Below the pieces are notes generated by a model. It saw nothing but the letters and a program-made list of their open reading frames with translations. It was not told the origin of the DNA and ran no database searches. From Escherichia phage A73: DNA of 64,000 nucleotides. The stretch lies in the sequence record OP778609. One strand, 5' to 3'. This document shows, one piece after another, positions 3,976-63,601 of this stretch (the first letter of the stretch is position 1; each line of letters starts with the position of its first letter). The position numbers and the translations under genes were made by a program.

Positions 3976-4170
3976 ATGACGTTAGCAACATGCACCGGAT
4001 CAAAAATTGCTTGCTTTGAGTTTATGGAAGACTATGAAACGACAGCTATCACCGATCAATATATCACCGTGATCACGCGTGACGGTATCGCCTGGCATGT
4101 TCCGGTTTATGATGGGGATACCTATGAAGTCACCGACAGCGGCGGCAATACAGCTATCTTTGTTGTCTAA
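3976..4170 (+). CDS. hypothetical protein (64 aa)
   Basis: ATG after AAAGGG. Confidence 0.45.
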   Translation: MTLATCTGSKIACFEFMEDYETTAITDQYITVITRDGIAWHVPVYDGDTYEVTDSGGNTAIFVV

Positions 4171-4183
4171 GGGGGGAAACACT

Positions 4184-4411
4184 ATGCACAATAACATCAT
4201 TACCGATCGTGCCGCTACTATGCGCCCTGGCGATCGGGCACGTTTACAGATCGGCGCTTATCCGTTCCCTACCTATGACTTTTGCAAAGTAACCGCTATC
4301 GAAAACAATCCCTTTGATCCTGATACCGTGATCATCTGGTACGAAGGAAAGGGAAATAAATTTGAAGACATTTTGGGGCGGGATGAGCATATCAATATTA
4401 TTCGTTACTAA
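4184..4411 (+). CDS. hypothetical protein (75 aa)
   Basis: ATG at 4184 preceded by GGGGGG; the longer track ORF 4079-4411 overlaps the previous gene. Confidence 0.5.
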   Translation: MHNNIITDRAATMRPGDRARLQIGAYPFPTYDFCKVTAIENNPFDPDTVIIWYEGKGNKFEDILGRDEHINIIRY

Positions 4412-8494: not shown

Positions 8495-8653
8495 TCTTCT
8501 TTCCCAAAATAAATTTTTTCTTGCTTTTATTGCCAGAGTATGGCGGGGGGAATGTTGAAAAAATAGATCTTGACTGGTCAACATACGATACATCCTATCT
8601 TCTTTCCCAAAATAAATTTTTTCTTGCTTTTATTGCCAGAGTATGGCGGGGGC
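8495..8653. repeat. two copies of a ~55-bp direct repeat
   Basis: TCTTCTTTCCCAAAATAAATTTTTTCTTGCTTTTATTGCCAGAGTATGGCGGGGG at 8495-8550 and again at 8598-8653; partial third copy of TTGCCAGAGTATGG near 8113. Confidence 0.85.
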
Positions 8654-60891: not shown

Positions 60892-61062
60892 ATGAAAGAC
60901 CAGACCTTTGAATCTCTAAGTTTCGATGACCCTCGTAATCATGAAAAACAAAAAGGTTACATGTGTCAGTGTTTTGTTTGTGGTTACAAATTTTTAGGGC
61001 CTAAGCGATCAGTGATGTGCAATCTTTGCCTTATTGGTAAAAAGACTGTTGACAATAGCTGA
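60892..61062 (+). CDS. small zinc-ribbon protein (56 aa)
   Basis: CQCFVCGY...CNLC cysteine pairs; start codon uncertain (ATG 60892 or TTG 60880). Confidence 0.4.
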   Translation: MKDQTFESLSFDDPRNHEKQKGYMCQCFVCGYKFLGPKRSVMCNLCLIGKKTVDNS

Positions 61063-61313
61063 TTAAATATGTAAGATTATCTTGTCGCCTGAGAGATTAG
61101 TCATCTTAATGGCTGGGTGGATAAATATAAGTTGGAACCATTATACCACCGACGCGATTTACGCTTTTGGTTGACTGTGACTAAATGGGATGCCCAGTCC
61201 ATCCTTCTTTAAAACGGGGAGCCGTCGAAGATTGTCTGATTAGTGATTTACGGATCATTATAGTTTTAATACCACGACAATCTTTTACGGTGTACCCCTT
61301 GTAAGAGAATTTA

Positions 61314-61396
61314 GCGCGGGTGTATCTCAACGGTCTTCTAAACCGTCGTTAATCGAGTAATTGGAGTATGAAGGTTCGAGTCCTTCCTCCCGCGCT
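61314..61396 (+). tRNA. atypical tRNA-like element (possible tRNA pseudogene or unusual tRNA)
   Basis: Canonical T-arm GAAGG-TTCGAGT-CCTTC and acceptor-like pairing GCGGGTG/CTCCCGC with one mismatch; hairpin ACGGT-CTTCTAA-ACCGT could be an anticodon arm (TCT), but there is no room for a normal D-arm. Confidence 0.3.
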
Positions 61397-61413
61397 AAGT
61401 TCTTTTGAATATA

Positions 61414-61488
61414 GGCCCTGTAGCTGGACGGTTCAAGCAAGCGACTCATAATCGCCAGACGGTGGTTCGATTCCACCCAGGGCCACCA
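61414..61488 (+). tRNA. tRNA-Met/Ile2 (anticodon CAT)
   Basis: Acceptor GGCCCTG/CAGGGCC, T-arm GGTGG-TTCGATT-CCACC, anticodon loop CTCATAA, encoded CCA; 75 nt. Confidence 0.8.
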
Positions 61489-61677
61489 TACAAAGTCGGG
61501 TAGCTCCCGATAAGTCGTCGGACTGATGTTCCCTGACTATGAGTTCTCTCAACGATAACGACGTAGATCACAGCAGAAACGGCGCACCCTATTATATTTC
61601 TTAATACATTTCAATAAGTTCTTGACATAATCCTATTATACTGCTAATATAGATATATCGACTGAATTGAGGTGTTT

Positions 61678-62052
61678 ATGGCTAAAGCTGAAATCGTTAC
61701 TCGAAAACGCGGTCGGCCTACTACAGAGGAAAGCATTGCAATCAATACTGAGAGAGCAATTCTTCATGCTCGTTCCGAGTTTGCAAGACTTACTCCTCAA
61801 GCAATTAAAACTCTGGAAGGTCTACTGACTTCCGGTACAGAGAAAGTTAAAGAAACTACTGCGAAGTATATTCTTGAGCAAGCTGAAAAGGCAAACAATC
61901 TGTACACAATGGAAGATAATGAAGAGGATCTGGCAGGAGGAACTACTTCTGCAAATTCAGAAACTCATCAAGGCCCTTCTGATGCATTTAAAGATGCTAT
62001 CCCATTAACTACTCAGATTCGTGAGTATAAAATGGCAGAAGGTGAAGATTAA
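61678..62052 (+). CDS. hypothetical protein with AT-hook-like RKRGRPT motif (124 aa)
   Basis: Own promoter TTGACA-17-TAATAT at 61622-61650; GAGGTG RBS; terminator 62051-62073. Confidence 0.55.
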   Translation: MAKAEIVTRKRGRPTTEESIAINTERAILHARSEFARLTPQAIKTLEGLLTSGTEKVKETTAKYILEQAEKANNLYTMEDNEEDLAGGTTSANSETHQGPSDAFKDAIPLTTQIREYKMAEGED

Positions 62053-62073
62053 GGCTCGCAAGGGCCTTTATTA
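62051..62073 (+). terminator. rho-independent terminator
   Basis: AAGGC-TCGCAAGG-GCCTT followed by a T-rich run. Confidence 0.55.
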
Positions 62074-62297
62074 AGAAGTTTTCTTTAAGGTAGTTCTTAC
62101 TTTAGCAGAGTAAATCTTCGGCAAGTGGCGGTAACCACTTTACCGATACCTCATAGTCAGTGCTGCAAACACTGGCTACCTTAAAGAGAATTTAACTCGT
62201 CGAATAAGGAAGATGCTGATCTCAAAGTGAGGTCACTTACCGCAAGGGGTGTGCATAGACTCCCGCTTCCGAATAGACTATGTGGCGAGATGTATTT

Positions 62298-62379
62298 GGG
62301 GACGTGGCAGAGCGGTCGAATGCGCCTGACTGTAAATCAGGTATCCCACACGGTGGTTCGAATCCATCCGGCCCCACCA
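62298..62379 (+). tRNA. tRNA-Tyr (anticodon GTA)
   Basis: Anticodon arm CCTGA-CTGTAAA-TCAGG, 3-bp D-stem, T-arm GGTGG-TTCGAAT-CCATC, encoded CCA; one A-G mismatch in the acceptor stem. Confidence 0.75.
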
Positions 62380-62382
62380 AAT

Positions 62383-62457
62383 TTTCCGTTAGGCTTACAG
62401 GATAAGATTCCCACAACATATCGTTGTGATACTGGTTCGAATCCAGTACGGAAACCA
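62383..62457 (+). tRNA. atypical tRNA-like element (no encoded CCA)
   Basis: Perfect 7-bp acceptor TTTCCGT/ACGGAAA and T-arm ACTGG-TTCGAAT-CCAGT; anticodon-like hairpin CACAA-CATATCG-TTGTG has non-canonical loop positions; D-arm irregular. Confidence 0.35.
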
Positions 62458-62582
62458 AATTAAGCCGTGATGTGATGTAATCACTGACCTCTTTGAAGGA
62501 TCATGGCATTTTATACAAAAACCTGAATAATTTAGGTTTTAATTCCTGGGGTTCGTAGCCCTATTACTAAGAGGACTTAACT

Positions 62583-62792
62583 ATGTTTACTATTAAAATT
62601 ATTGATATCGATGGAAATGAGACTGGTGTTTCAACAAGGCACTATAGATGGTACTCAAAAATGAATATTTTTGATCTGGAGGGTGGTGAATCTGTTTCTG
62701 TACCACCAAAAAGTCGTGCTTATGTAATGAATGACAAAGGAATAACCATCGGTAGATACACAAATACAGCGGATCAACGCGTTCTTAATTAA
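62583..62792 (+). CDS. hypothetical protein (69 aa)
   Basis: ATG with AAGAGGA RBS; sits between tRNA genes. Confidence 0.5.
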   Translation: MFTIKIIDIDGNETGVSTRHYRWYSKMNIFDLEGGESVSVPPKSRAYVMNDKGITIGRYTNTADQRVLN

Positions 62793-62793
62793 A

Positions 62794-62868
<75 letters not shown>

Positions 62869-62967
62869 AACCTCTATCCATCTGACGCGTTTATGGGGTT
62901 GACCTGATCACTCTTCTCCTAATCTCGTGTGAAGACACCATGATTGTTGGGATGGATAAACTTCTTT

Positions 62968-63042
62968 TGGGGATTAGCCAAGCGGTAAGGCATCGGATTT
63001 TGATTCCGACATTCACTGGTTCGATTCCAGTATCCCCAGCCA
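62968..63042 (+). tRNA. tRNA-Gln (anticodon TTG)
   Basis: Acceptor TGGGGAT/ATCCCCA, anticodon arm TCGGA-TTTTGAT-TCCGA, T-arm ACTGG-TTCGATT-CCAGT, encoded CCA; 75 nt. Confidence 0.85.
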
Positions 63043-63047
63043 ATTAA

Positions 63048-63124
<77 letters not shown>

Positions 63125-63173
63125 ATTTACCCTCATATAATAACAATAATATAATCTCCTCTCCTTCGCCTCA

Positions 63174-63199
63174 GCCTCCCTCATTTGGGAGGCTTTTTT
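63174..63199 (+). terminator. rho-independent terminator closing the tRNA cluster
   Basis: GCCTCCC-TCATTT-GGGAGGC followed by TTTTTT. Confidence 0.7.
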
Positions 63200-63241
63200 A
63201 TTTGTGCTTTCGGTGATAAAATATCCAAAAGGAGGATTTAT

Positions 63242-63601
63242 ATGTTACCCGCTAAAAAATATTTCATTTACGCAATGATCGGCGTTGCGTTATTTACGTC
63301 TGGAAAACTGTATCTCGGACACGTCGAGTCTGTGGGATATGACAAAGGCTACGATGCTGCAAACACGGCTTGGATAAAGAAAGCTACTGAGTACAAAGGA
63401 AAGCTTGACTCTACATTGGAAGAGAATAAGAGGTTGAATGAAGAACTTTCTTATGCAAATGCAAAACGGATCATCGCTGAGGAAAAATTACGTGATGAAG
63501 TAGAGGCAATGAGAATCGACTATGCAAAATCTAAAAAGGGACAAGAAATATTTATGGATGATGAGATAGTTGATATCTATAACAAATCACTGGGGGAATA
63601 A
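63242..63601 (+). CDS. i-spanin-like protein (N-terminal TM + coiled coil, 119 aa), tentative
   Basis: Start MLPAKK with AAAAGGAGGA RBS; TM helix YFIYAMIGVALFTSG then charged helical region; stop overlaps the next start (TAATG). Confidence 0.4.
   Translation: MLPAKKYFIYAMIGVALFTSGKLYLGHVESVGYDKGYDAANTAWIKKATEYKGKLDSTLEENKRLNEELSYANAKRIIAEEKLRDEVEAMRIDYAKSKKGQEIFMDDEIVDIYNKSLGE

Follow-up and report, generated by a model that had tools for sequence, protein, structure and literature searches.

Phages carry a probable non-cloverleaf class of arginine tRNA and a separate family of tRNA-shaped RNAs

In Escherichia phage A73 (sequence record OP778609), two transfer RNA (tRNA)-like sequences lie among ordinary tRNA genes in the 64,000-nucleotide (nt) stretch of DNA analysed here (the window), which raises the question of whether they are decayed tRNA genes, tRNA mimics, processing signals or tRNAs of an unfamiliar kind. 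The region concerned (window 61000-63200) is 100% identical to positions 134323-136523 of Escherichia phage W70 (OP778610.1, Vequintavirinae), window position 1 being position 73324 of that record, and the copies in the window are referred to as W70 copies. The answer that we consider likely on comparative grounds is that the first sequence (element 1) is the only tRNA-Arg gene of W70 and a member, of a stalked subtype, of a widespread, phage-specific class of tRNA-Arg that does not form a cloverleaf, and that the second (element 2) represents a separate family of tRNA-shaped RNAs.

Standard tools set both elements apart from their neighbours. ARAGORN finds five canonical tRNAs in the region (Met, Tyr, Gly, Gln and Pro), and the whole 137-kilobase (kb) W70 genome holds no tRNA beyond these five, none of which is for arginine. 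The program makes no call on element 1 in W70 nor at six homologous loci in other phages, and in a 60-locus run it returned odd 94-96-nt 'tRNA-Arg(tct)' calls over the element at two loci (L024 and L080) and a 98-nt call over a different variant (L061). The Rfam tRNA model (RF00005) matches element 1 at 35.8 bits (cutoff 29), in an alignment that drops 15 model positions at the D-arm and inserts 20 nt into the variable region. For element 2, we found no ARAGORN call in W70 and no Rfam match even at E values up to 10, and a scan of 60900-63250 with Rfam 15 at the same limit yielded no dedicated family, only weak YrlA and transfer-messenger RNA (tmRNA)-like noise besides tRNA. The initial annotation had flagged the two elements as atypical tRNA-like sequences, and this description is borne out.

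Element 1 does share a number of features with a canonical cloverleaf, namely a continuous acceptor and T-arm with a TTCRAnn T-loop and an anticodon loop with U33 and a purine at position 37. The W70 copy has neither a D hairpin between positions 9 and 26 nor an encoded CCA. Only 7 nt lie between the acceptor and the anticodon arm of 5 base pairs (bp) and 7 loop nucleotides, so that no D hairpin fits, and the initial annotation was right on this point and on the perfect T-arm; the 'perfect' acceptor that it proposed (GCGCGGG/CCCGCGC) is, however, 2 bp out of register, the extra pairs being part of a 13-bp stalk that prolongs the helix.

We found that element 1 belongs to a large family. Copies with 80-90% identity were recovered by sensitive BLAST from ~270 phage records of unrelated lineages, including the W70 group, Salmonella phage SSBI34, Felixounavirus, Justusliebigvirus (phi92), Klebsiella and Proteus myoviruses, 350-380-kb jumbo phages and 70-77-kb podoviruses, and pattern scans added ~70 IMG/VR loci and at least 120 metagenome contigs (freshwater, soil, marine and gut). 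The 129 distinct sequences share one frame of exactly 78 nt plus discriminator, with zero indels. Nearly all copies are blank in the annotation, the few exceptions being entered as 'tRNA-OTHER', 'tRNA-TERM' or 'tRNA'. Among 185,579 bacterial and archaeal species, represented by one genome each, there were 12 pattern matches only, and the true members among them (L221, L222, L225 and L226) lie on contigs of metagenome-assembled genomes, which gives no sign of the family being used by a cellular organism. A pattern covering the 5' half only (GTATCTCA-N5-CTTCTAA) gave one new member, the remaining new matches being random coding sequence. A gene for an HNH (homing) endonuclease lies beside or over the homologue at L008 489-873 (Klebsiella phage Roth50) and at hits H57, H159 and H179; such adjoining genes may help to explain the spread of element 1 among unrelated phages at 85-89% identity.

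What takes the place of the D-arm is revealed by covariation. In 36 diverse members, pairing reaches 99.2% in the acceptor, anticodon and T helices, 14 of whose 17 pairs change on both sides, and the covariation is 0.875 compared with 0.22 for shuffles and 0.11-0.18 for slid controls. The connector between the acceptor and the anticodon arm, and the 23-nt 'variable' stretch from the anticodon arm to the T-arm (CGTTAATCGAGTAATTGGAGTAT in W70), seemed invariant until the searches were anchored on the 3' part only, and then both proved variable and covarying: the connector TATC-TCA occurs with the downstream segment GAG, TATC-ACA with GTG, TATC-GCC with GCG, TATC-ATC with GATG, TATC-AGT with GCTG and TATC-TTC with GAAG. 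Hence, the CUC before the anticodon arm pairs with the GAG after it, forming a D-stem-like helix that encloses the anticodon stem and is stacked under it (C61326-G61357, T61327-A61356 and C61328-G61355 in W70). This long-range 3-bp helix is Watson-Crick at all three pairs in 129 of 129 members, and the pair types vary (UA 57, AU 18, GC 13 and CG 4 at one pair, CG 83, UA 6 and GC 3 at another, with 100% pairing in 92 members). The complete four-helix fold is 97.7% paired in the 92 distinct members, with a covariation of 0.785 compared with 0.186 for shuffles and at most 0.144 for slid controls. Two other pairings do not hold up: where the position is informative, the connector can pair with a second GAG (in GGAGTA) in only 63% of sequences, the first GAG pairing in 100%, and a local GNRA-like hairpin proposed by ViennaRNA (YCGA-GUAA-NYGG) is refuted, as 42% of its cells are paired in the 52 informative sequences and 100% of those of the long-range helix. 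An 8-nt bulge (C-n-U-U-A-A-n-n) separates the anticodon stem from the D-like helix, in the place of the variable loop; its C, UU and AA vary little or not at all though the search pattern left these positions free.

A covariance model of the four helices (R1) gives family members 77-108 bits and canonical tRNAs at most 39, leaving a bimodal gap. The W70 copy, with 105.7 bits (E ~1e-26), lies towards the upper end of this range and displays every motif of the model, that is the invariant UA, the CnUUAA bulge, GAGU-AAnnGGAGUA-U and the 78-nt body.

These data bear on the suggestion of the initial annotation that the elements are degenerate pseudogenes, which might have been left by the decay of a larger tRNA cluster. 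ARAGORN gives no call, W70 and most other records leave both elements unannotated, element 1 of W70 lacks CCA and has one mismatch, and the loop of element 2 has 5 nt, all of which would suit a decaying gene. Decay is nevertheless contradicted by the compensatory changes found in every helix of element 1 (92-129 distinct sequences) with no indels, by the score gap to ordinary tRNAs and by stems so divergent, and yet compensated, that they exclude recent copies of a single sequence. Element 2 likewise shows double changes at eight pairs among nine sequences, and its identity between phages exceeds that of the canonical tRNA-Gly, tRNA-Gln and tRNA-Pro while the spacers are random. We consequently regard the pseudogene explanation as very improbable.

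Several members depart from the typical arrangement. One contig (L173, Ga0255783_10000721), which holds 31 tRNAs and a tmRNA-like gene, carries three rewired-D tRNA-Arg genes on its minus strand, at 4096-4188, 8592-8684 and 11195-11287, with the anticodons CCU, UCU and ACG, respectively, besides two canonical tRNA-Arg(UCU). Variants off the 78-nt frame occur at L061, L158, L179, L198 and L153, several of them with a bulge of 3 instead of 8 nt; the one at L061 (13332-13429) has TAATTGGATAG...CAT before the T-stem, possibly a different enclosing helix, and scores 56.9 bits to R1. In a human gut metagenome (L100, ~1424-1507), a tRNA-like sequence with 35.7 bits to R1 combines a normal D-arm (GCTC-AACAGGATA-GAGC) and a T-arm, apparently without an anticodon arm, and carries the motif TAATTGGAGTATG directly before the T-stem, as the element 1 family does.

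Compared residue by residue with an ordinary tRNA, the rewired fold suggests a simple rearrangement. The TA of the connector would represent U8 and A9, the TCTC the 22-25 strand and the final A position 26; downstream, GAGU would represent the 10-13 strand (G10-C25, A11-U24, G12-C23 and U13·U22), AAnnGGAGUA the D-loop with A14, A15, G18, G19, A20 and A21, and the next U would be U48. In effect, the block 10-21 would have moved from upstream of position 22 to downstream of position 43. The D-loop-like strand AAnnGGAGUA resembles the AAnnGGAUA of canonical phage tRNA-Arg D-loops, and its two 'n' residues are the variable positions, like 16 and 17 of ordinary tRNAs. A normal tRNA has U8-A14-A21 stacked on pair 13-22, pairs between R15 and Y48 and between 26 and 44, and a contact of 45 with 10-25. 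Each of the new junctions (9-22, 43-10 and 21-48) joins residues that are neighbours in the normal L-shape, which makes a normal three-dimensional shape, with an elbow formed by the GG and the T-loop, geometrically plausible.

Table 1. Positions of the features of the tRNA region, in window numbering.
Feature	Position	Strand	Remarks
Predicted sigma-70-like promoter, TTGACA-17-TAAGAT	61049-61077	+	10 of 12 consensus matches; upstream of leader hairpin, element 1 and tRNA-Met
Leader hairpin, long	~61205-61310	+	z -4.0; between promoter and element 1
Stalk 5' strand, AAGAGAATTTAGC	61303-61315	+	Pairs with 61394-61406 (13 bp); extends the acceptor helix
Element 1, body	61316-61394	+	78 nt plus discriminator
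Element 1, acceptor 5' strand, GCGGGTG	61316-61322	+	Pairs with 61387-61393; 7 of 7 pairs covary in the family
Element 1, connector, TATCTCA	61323-61329	+	U8/A9-like TA (invariant), T-CTC (3'-strand-like half of a D-stem), A26-like base
Element 1, anticodon arm, ACGGT/ACCGT, loop CTTCTAA	61330-61346	+	5 of 5 pairs covary
Element 1, anticodon TCT	61337-61339	+	Predicted to read AGA
Element 1, conserved bulge, CGTTAATC	61347-61354	+	Between anticodon stem and D-like helix
Element 1, GAGT + AATTGGAGTA + T	61355-61369	+	5'-strand-like half of a D-stem, D-loop-like strand (G18, G19, A20, A21 equivalents), U48-like base; abuts the T-stem
Element 1, T-arm, GAAGG/TTCGAGT/CCTTC	61370-61386	+	Rfam alignment and covariation
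Element 1, acceptor 3' strand, CTCCCGC, and discriminator G61394	61387-61394	+	Followed by CTA; no CCA
Stalk 3' strand, GCTAAGTTCTTTT	61394-61406	+	Ends 7 nt before tRNA-Met
tRNA-Met(CAT), canonical	61414-61488	+	ARAGORN and Rfam tRNA model; one transcription unit with element 1
Second strong sigma-70-like promoter, predicted	61622-61650		
Four-way-junction RNA, 19-bp closing stem	62076-62195	+	z -4.78
tRNA-Tyr(GTA), canonical	62298-62379	+	Ends 3 nt upstream of element 2
Element 2, tRNA-like RNA	62383-62457	+	75 nt; acceptor, T-arm and D region covary
Element 2, acceptor, TTTCCGT/ACGGAAA	62383-62389/62448-62454	+	Perfect 7 bp
Element 2, D stem-loop, CTTA-CAGGA-TAAG	62394-62406	+	4 bp, 5-nt loop; extra base, no A14 in register
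Element 2, hairpin, CACAAC-ATATC-GTTGTG	62412-62428	+	6 bp, 5-nt loop
Element 2, T-arm, ACTGG-TTCGAAT-CCAGT	62431-62447	+	
tRNA-Gly, canonical	62794-62868		ARAGORN
tRNA-Gln, canonical	62968-63042		ARAGORN
tRNA-Pro, canonical	63048-63124		ARAGORN
Terminator	63173-63194		

Several features of the family point to arginine. The anticodons are TCT in 116 members, CCT in 5, ACG in 5, TCG in 2 and ACT in 1, that is arginine in 128 of 129; C35 is kept in all 129 members and position 36 is T or G. The discriminator is G in 76 members, A in 47, T in 5 and C in 1 (a purine in 123 of 129), and CCA is encoded by 92 of the 129. In E. coli, the identity set of arginyl-tRNA synthetase (ArgRS) consists of C35, U36 or G36, A20 and A or G at position 73. 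An A follows the GG in the D-loop-like strand (GGAGTA), as in the GGATA of canonical phage tRNA-Arg, and may take the place of A20. The anticodon loop CUUCUAA of the W70 copy is shared with E. coli argU.

The similarity to canonical tRNA-Arg(UCU) (E. coli argU and the genes of phages JES2013 and ESCO5) extends to the 7-bp acceptor, the 5-bp anticodon stem, C32, U33 and A37, the TTCGAnn T-loop, the A or G discriminator, the GGA(U)A motif with an A20-like residue and the location in a phage tRNA cluster. Unlike these genes, element 1 has no D hairpin; its D-stem is split between two strands, the D-loop-like strand is joined to the T-stem, and the 8-nt bulge stands where the variable loop would be. 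Standard programs overlook the element or report it as tRNA-OTHER or tRNA-TERM, and the W70 copy is in addition CCA-less and stalked.

Furthermore, the distribution of the family is largely complementary to that of canonical tRNA-Arg(UCU). Of 20 phage clusters that combine the element with at least 15 canonical tRNAs, 16 are without a canonical tRNA-Arg(UCU), and many have tRNA-Arg(ACG) only; we found no element 1 in the tRNA regions examined of ESCO5 and JES2013, both of which carry the canonical gene. AGA is used in W70 at 8.1 per 1000 codons (16% of its arginine codons), and E. coli K-12 uses it at roughly 2 per 1000, so that the phage employs this codon about four times as often as its host.

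An RNA with a conserved arginine anticodon loop could also act outside translation, as a tRNA-Arg mimic that serves as a decoy or sponge for a tRNA-Arg-recognising factor of the host, for instance the anticodon nuclease of an anti-phage defence or a colicin-D-like enzyme, or for a modification enzyme, and thereby shields the host tRNA-Arg. The strong conservation of the anticodon loop in a non-canonical architecture would be expected of such a decoy, the stalked CCA-less subtype of W70 might never expose a chargeable 3' end, and phage tRNAs that counter tRNA-targeting defences are documented in the literature (e.g. PMC10264068 and PMC12409363). It is less easily reconciled with the 71% of members that encode discriminator and CCA like chargeable tRNAs, with the retention of C35 in four different arginine anticodons, a pattern more in keeping with the logic of synthetase and codons than with the imitation of a single target, and with the presence of the element in phage tRNA sets that are nearly complete but for tRNA-Arg(UCU). 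On balance, the decoy appears unlikely to us as an account of element 1.

The W70 copy belongs to a particular subtype. Together with the stalk, its acceptor helix comprises ~20 bp, and the stalked fold has a z-score of -4.38. An extension of 12-16 bp is found in ~18 of the 37 CCA-less members, with sequences that are all different and mutually compensated, whereas the acceptor is prolonged by at most one pair in members that encode CCA. The restriction of different, compensated stalks to CCA-less members indicates that the subtype is selected and is no product of decay. The U-U at acceptor pair 6-67 of the W70 copy recurs in another stalked member (L021), in which the neighbouring pairs differ, and this suggests that it is tolerated. 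A 20-bp helix has the classic length of an RNase III substrate, and maturation without an encoded CCA has a precedent in T4, whose CCA-less tRNAs rely on host RNase BN and the CCA-adding enzyme. The stalk may thus be a processing helix, for which RNase III is the obvious candidate; RNase P would then cleave, and host enzymes would trim the 3' end and add CCA.

Such a helix can also be read differently, with the elements as no more than processing or punctuation signals for RNase P, RNase Z or RNase III and the released RNA as functionless. Both elements lie in transcription units of tRNAs and open reading frames beside canonical tRNAs, a nearby four-way junction has a 19-bp stem comparable to the ~20-bp stalk of element 1, and element 2 has no decoding loop. 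A cleavage signal, however, would work without a conserved arginine anticodon loop, a D-loop-like GGA motif or an invariant bulge, and most family members have no stalk. For the two elements together this explanation is therefore quite improbable, more so than the decoy, although for element 2 alone a processing signal is plausible.

A number of observations weigh against the view that element 1 is the tRNA-Arg gene of W70 in a class of its own. The family searches were anchored on conserved motifs, and the invariance of some positions is in part imposed by the search. Thermodynamic folding of the W70 body alone yields a non-tRNA fold (z -1.1) and does not recover the rewired one. Tertiary mimicry, that is the contact of the GG with the T-loop and the recognition of A20, is suggested by sequence resemblance. 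Two loci (L054 and L173) carry the element as well as canonical tRNA-Arg(UCU), and the replacement is thus not strict. The W70 copy is without CCA, has the acceptor U-U and is buried in the 20-bp helix, so that its maturation is hypothetical, and a tRNA-Arg decoy would likewise keep the anticodon loop and share several of the features listed above. Lastly, no prior description of a phage or bacterial tRNA with such an architecture was found in the full-text literature, including a search with the 13-nt signature of the family, subscription journals being mostly outside the coverage; the family is a previously unannotated structural variant of tRNA, for which a prior description is possible given this coverage.

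Taking these points together, we still consider it likely that element 1 is a tRNA-Arg of this phage-specific class, and its sequence features make a decoy or a processing signal less likely than a working non-canonical tRNA-Arg. Such a molecule could form an elbow, present A20 and C35 to ArgRS and be charged, and could then read AGA (and AGG) codons. More tentatively, and with considerable doubt, a tRNA of new topology may have evolved and spread horizontally in phages, be charged by the host ArgRS and be used by the ribosome, which would make it the first known case of a natural tRNA serving bacterial translation without a cloverleaf; its rewired D region may be adaptive in escaping host factors that read the D-arm or the elbow (for example defence nucleases), and the stalked subtype may mature in an RNase III-dependent manner.

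Comparison with known unusual tRNAs helps to place the family. The D-arm-lacking mitochondrial tRNAs (metazoan mitochondrial tRNA-Ser(AGY) and the truncated tRNAs of nematodes and arachnids), which are thought to be working adaptors, have a short connector in place of the D hairpin, as element 1 does. They have, however, lost the D domain together with the contact between D-loop and T-loop and use a co-evolved mitochondrial machinery, whereas element 1 is of full length (79 nt) and would have to serve with an unmodified bacterial machinery. Nor is its D domain absent in the mitochondrial manner, as the connector is paired downstream in 100% of members and the GG strand is kept. Segments in a changed order are found, as in element 1, in the permuted and split tRNA genes known from algae and archaea, but there the change is at the level of the gene and is repaired to give a cloverleaf, whereas the rearrangement of element 1 would persist in the mature RNA. 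The acceptor strands of element 1 are in the normal order, and no bulge-helix-bulge or intron is evident in the 79-nt unit. The abstract of a 2024 paper in Nucleic Acids Research (PMC11551756) describes all known bacterial tRNAs as canonical cloverleaves and reports that E. coli had to be evolved to accept a designed tRNA lacking the D-arm. That tRNA is engineered and the element 1 family is natural and widespread, the question common to both being whether bacterial translation can work with a non-canonical fold.

Element 2 is a different case. The initial annotation was correct in giving it a perfect acceptor and T-arm and a non-canonical loop, which has 5 nt, but not in denying it a CCA, which is encoded at 62455-62457. 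This CCA abuts the acceptor stem without a discriminator and is thus out of the canonical frame. Linkers of TAGG after the acceptor, ATTCC after the D stem-loop and AT before the T-arm complete the sequence. Relatives are found in the W70 group, ~70 phapecoctaviruses, siphovirus phiEB49 and Enterobacter phages SonariX and SABI; in the phapecoctaviruses the element fills an unannotated 78-nt gap between tRNA-Ile and a tRNA-Met-like gene, and in phiEB49 the homologue, 1 nt after tRNA-Arg(CCU), is called tRNA-Val(AAC). In phage phAPEC8, the 79-nt tRNA-Met-like gene just downstream of the homologue (L250, 228-306; equivalent in ESCO5 and ESCO37) has its anticodon at position 37 and is annotated 'tRNA-Pseudo-CAT'.

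The fold of element 2 is paired in 95.8% of cells, and the eight double-change pairs compare with 3.2 in shuffles and 0-2 in slid controls. Between W70 and the phapecoctavirus ESCO5, its identity is 78.7%, compared with 66% for tRNA-Gly, 60.5% for tRNA-Gln, 74% for tRNA-Pro and 49% for the spacers, the last being the shuffled level. An identity above that of canonical tRNAs, with random spacers, shows that element 2 is under constraint. Its hairpin stays paired throughout, the loop having 3, 4, 5, 7 or 9 nt and no conserved triplet; the loop of the W70 copy is not the 7-nt loop of an anticodon arm. A covariance model (R2) gives the W70 copy 94.6 bits and canonical tRNAs at most 42, again with a bimodal gap, and a search of ~190 loci with this model gave no further relatives. 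A scan of IMG/VR for the D region returned only a phapecoctavirus contig and phiEB49, other matches being random. The best ordinary tRNAs under R2 are tRNA-Arg because the D region of element 2 (GCTT-ACAGGATA-AGA) resembles their D-arm.

From this pattern of conservation, we conclude that element 2 is a conserved tRNA-shaped RNA that, judging from its loop, is unable to decode, was probably derived from tRNA-Arg and most likely acts via its tRNA shape rather than by decoding; this non-decoding role may be, for example, that of a decoy or a processing aid. RNAs of tRNA shape with an acceptor and a T-arm and no decoding loop are known from T4 (species 1 and 2), from Bacillus cereus ('tRNA-Other') and as domains of tmRNA and YrlA RNA, with roles that are mostly unknown or non-translational. 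Element 2 is similar to these pseudo-tRNAs in shape and in its setting among tRNA genes, but differs in being tRNA-sized (75 nt) and in its tRNA-Arg-like D region, and no sequence relationship to them was found with Rfam. ARAGORN also returns 'tRNA-???' calls with 2- or 4-base anticodons (6- or 8-nt loops) at L012 (928-997 and 2598-2672), L015 (262-337), L045 (5383-5457), L058 (1770-1845) and L039 (2806-2882), and tRNA-like genes with odd anticodon loops seem to be common in these phage tRNA clusters.

The two predicted promoters and the terminator (Table 1) frame two transcription units, and both atypical elements accordingly adjoin canonical tRNAs on the same strand, element 1 being co-oriented with tRNA-Met with a predicted promoter upstream; the assignment of the first promoter follows from its match to the consensus. 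The OP778610.1 annotation has zero tRNA genes across window 61000-63200 despite the five canonical tRNAs, and the related records A7_1, A5-4 and UPEC06 have only hypothetical proteins annotated under the matching region.

The stable stem-loops that the initial annotation had pointed out at 61100-61310 and 62090-62290 correspond to two further structured RNAs, both conserved in hundreds of phages. The four-way-junction RNA (118-120 nt) is present in 177 phage records from several subfamilies (Phapecoctavirus, Vequintavirus, Justusliebigvirus, Epseptimavirus, Felix-like phages and Cronobacter and Klebsiella phages), in every case within a tRNA cluster, where it often directly abuts the tRNAs on either side. 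The copies of W70 and ESCO5 share 90.8% identity; the RNA shows compensatory changes in arm 2, whose loop varies, and matches no Rfam family. Over ~95 nt, the leader hairpin is 80-85% identical to unannotated intergenic DNA of more than 600 T-even phage records, among them the rIII-30.9 intergenic region of T4, and to phi92 and some 75-kb podoviruses, and has the look of an intergenic RNA or regulatory cassette that many phages share. An assignment of the T4 match to species 1 or 2 RNA of the T4 tRNA cluster proved wrong, as the match lies between rIII and 30.9.

The architecture of tRNA is among the most conserved features in biology. If the element 1 family is active, the problem of an alternative to the cloverleaf would already have been solved naturally in phage groups that are common in the laboratory (Felix O1-like, phi92-like and rV5-like phages, Klebsiella myoviruses and jumbo phages), and the family would provide a natural system for finding out what contacts of a tRNA are important to ArgRS, EF-Tu, RNase P, the modification enzymes and the ribosome, as well as a new scaffold for orthogonal tRNAs. 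Phage annotation would then have to be corrected, since a tRNA reading AGA would be missing from hundreds of genome records, which biases analyses of codon compensation, and the rewired fold may be tied to the arms race over tRNA-targeting immunity.

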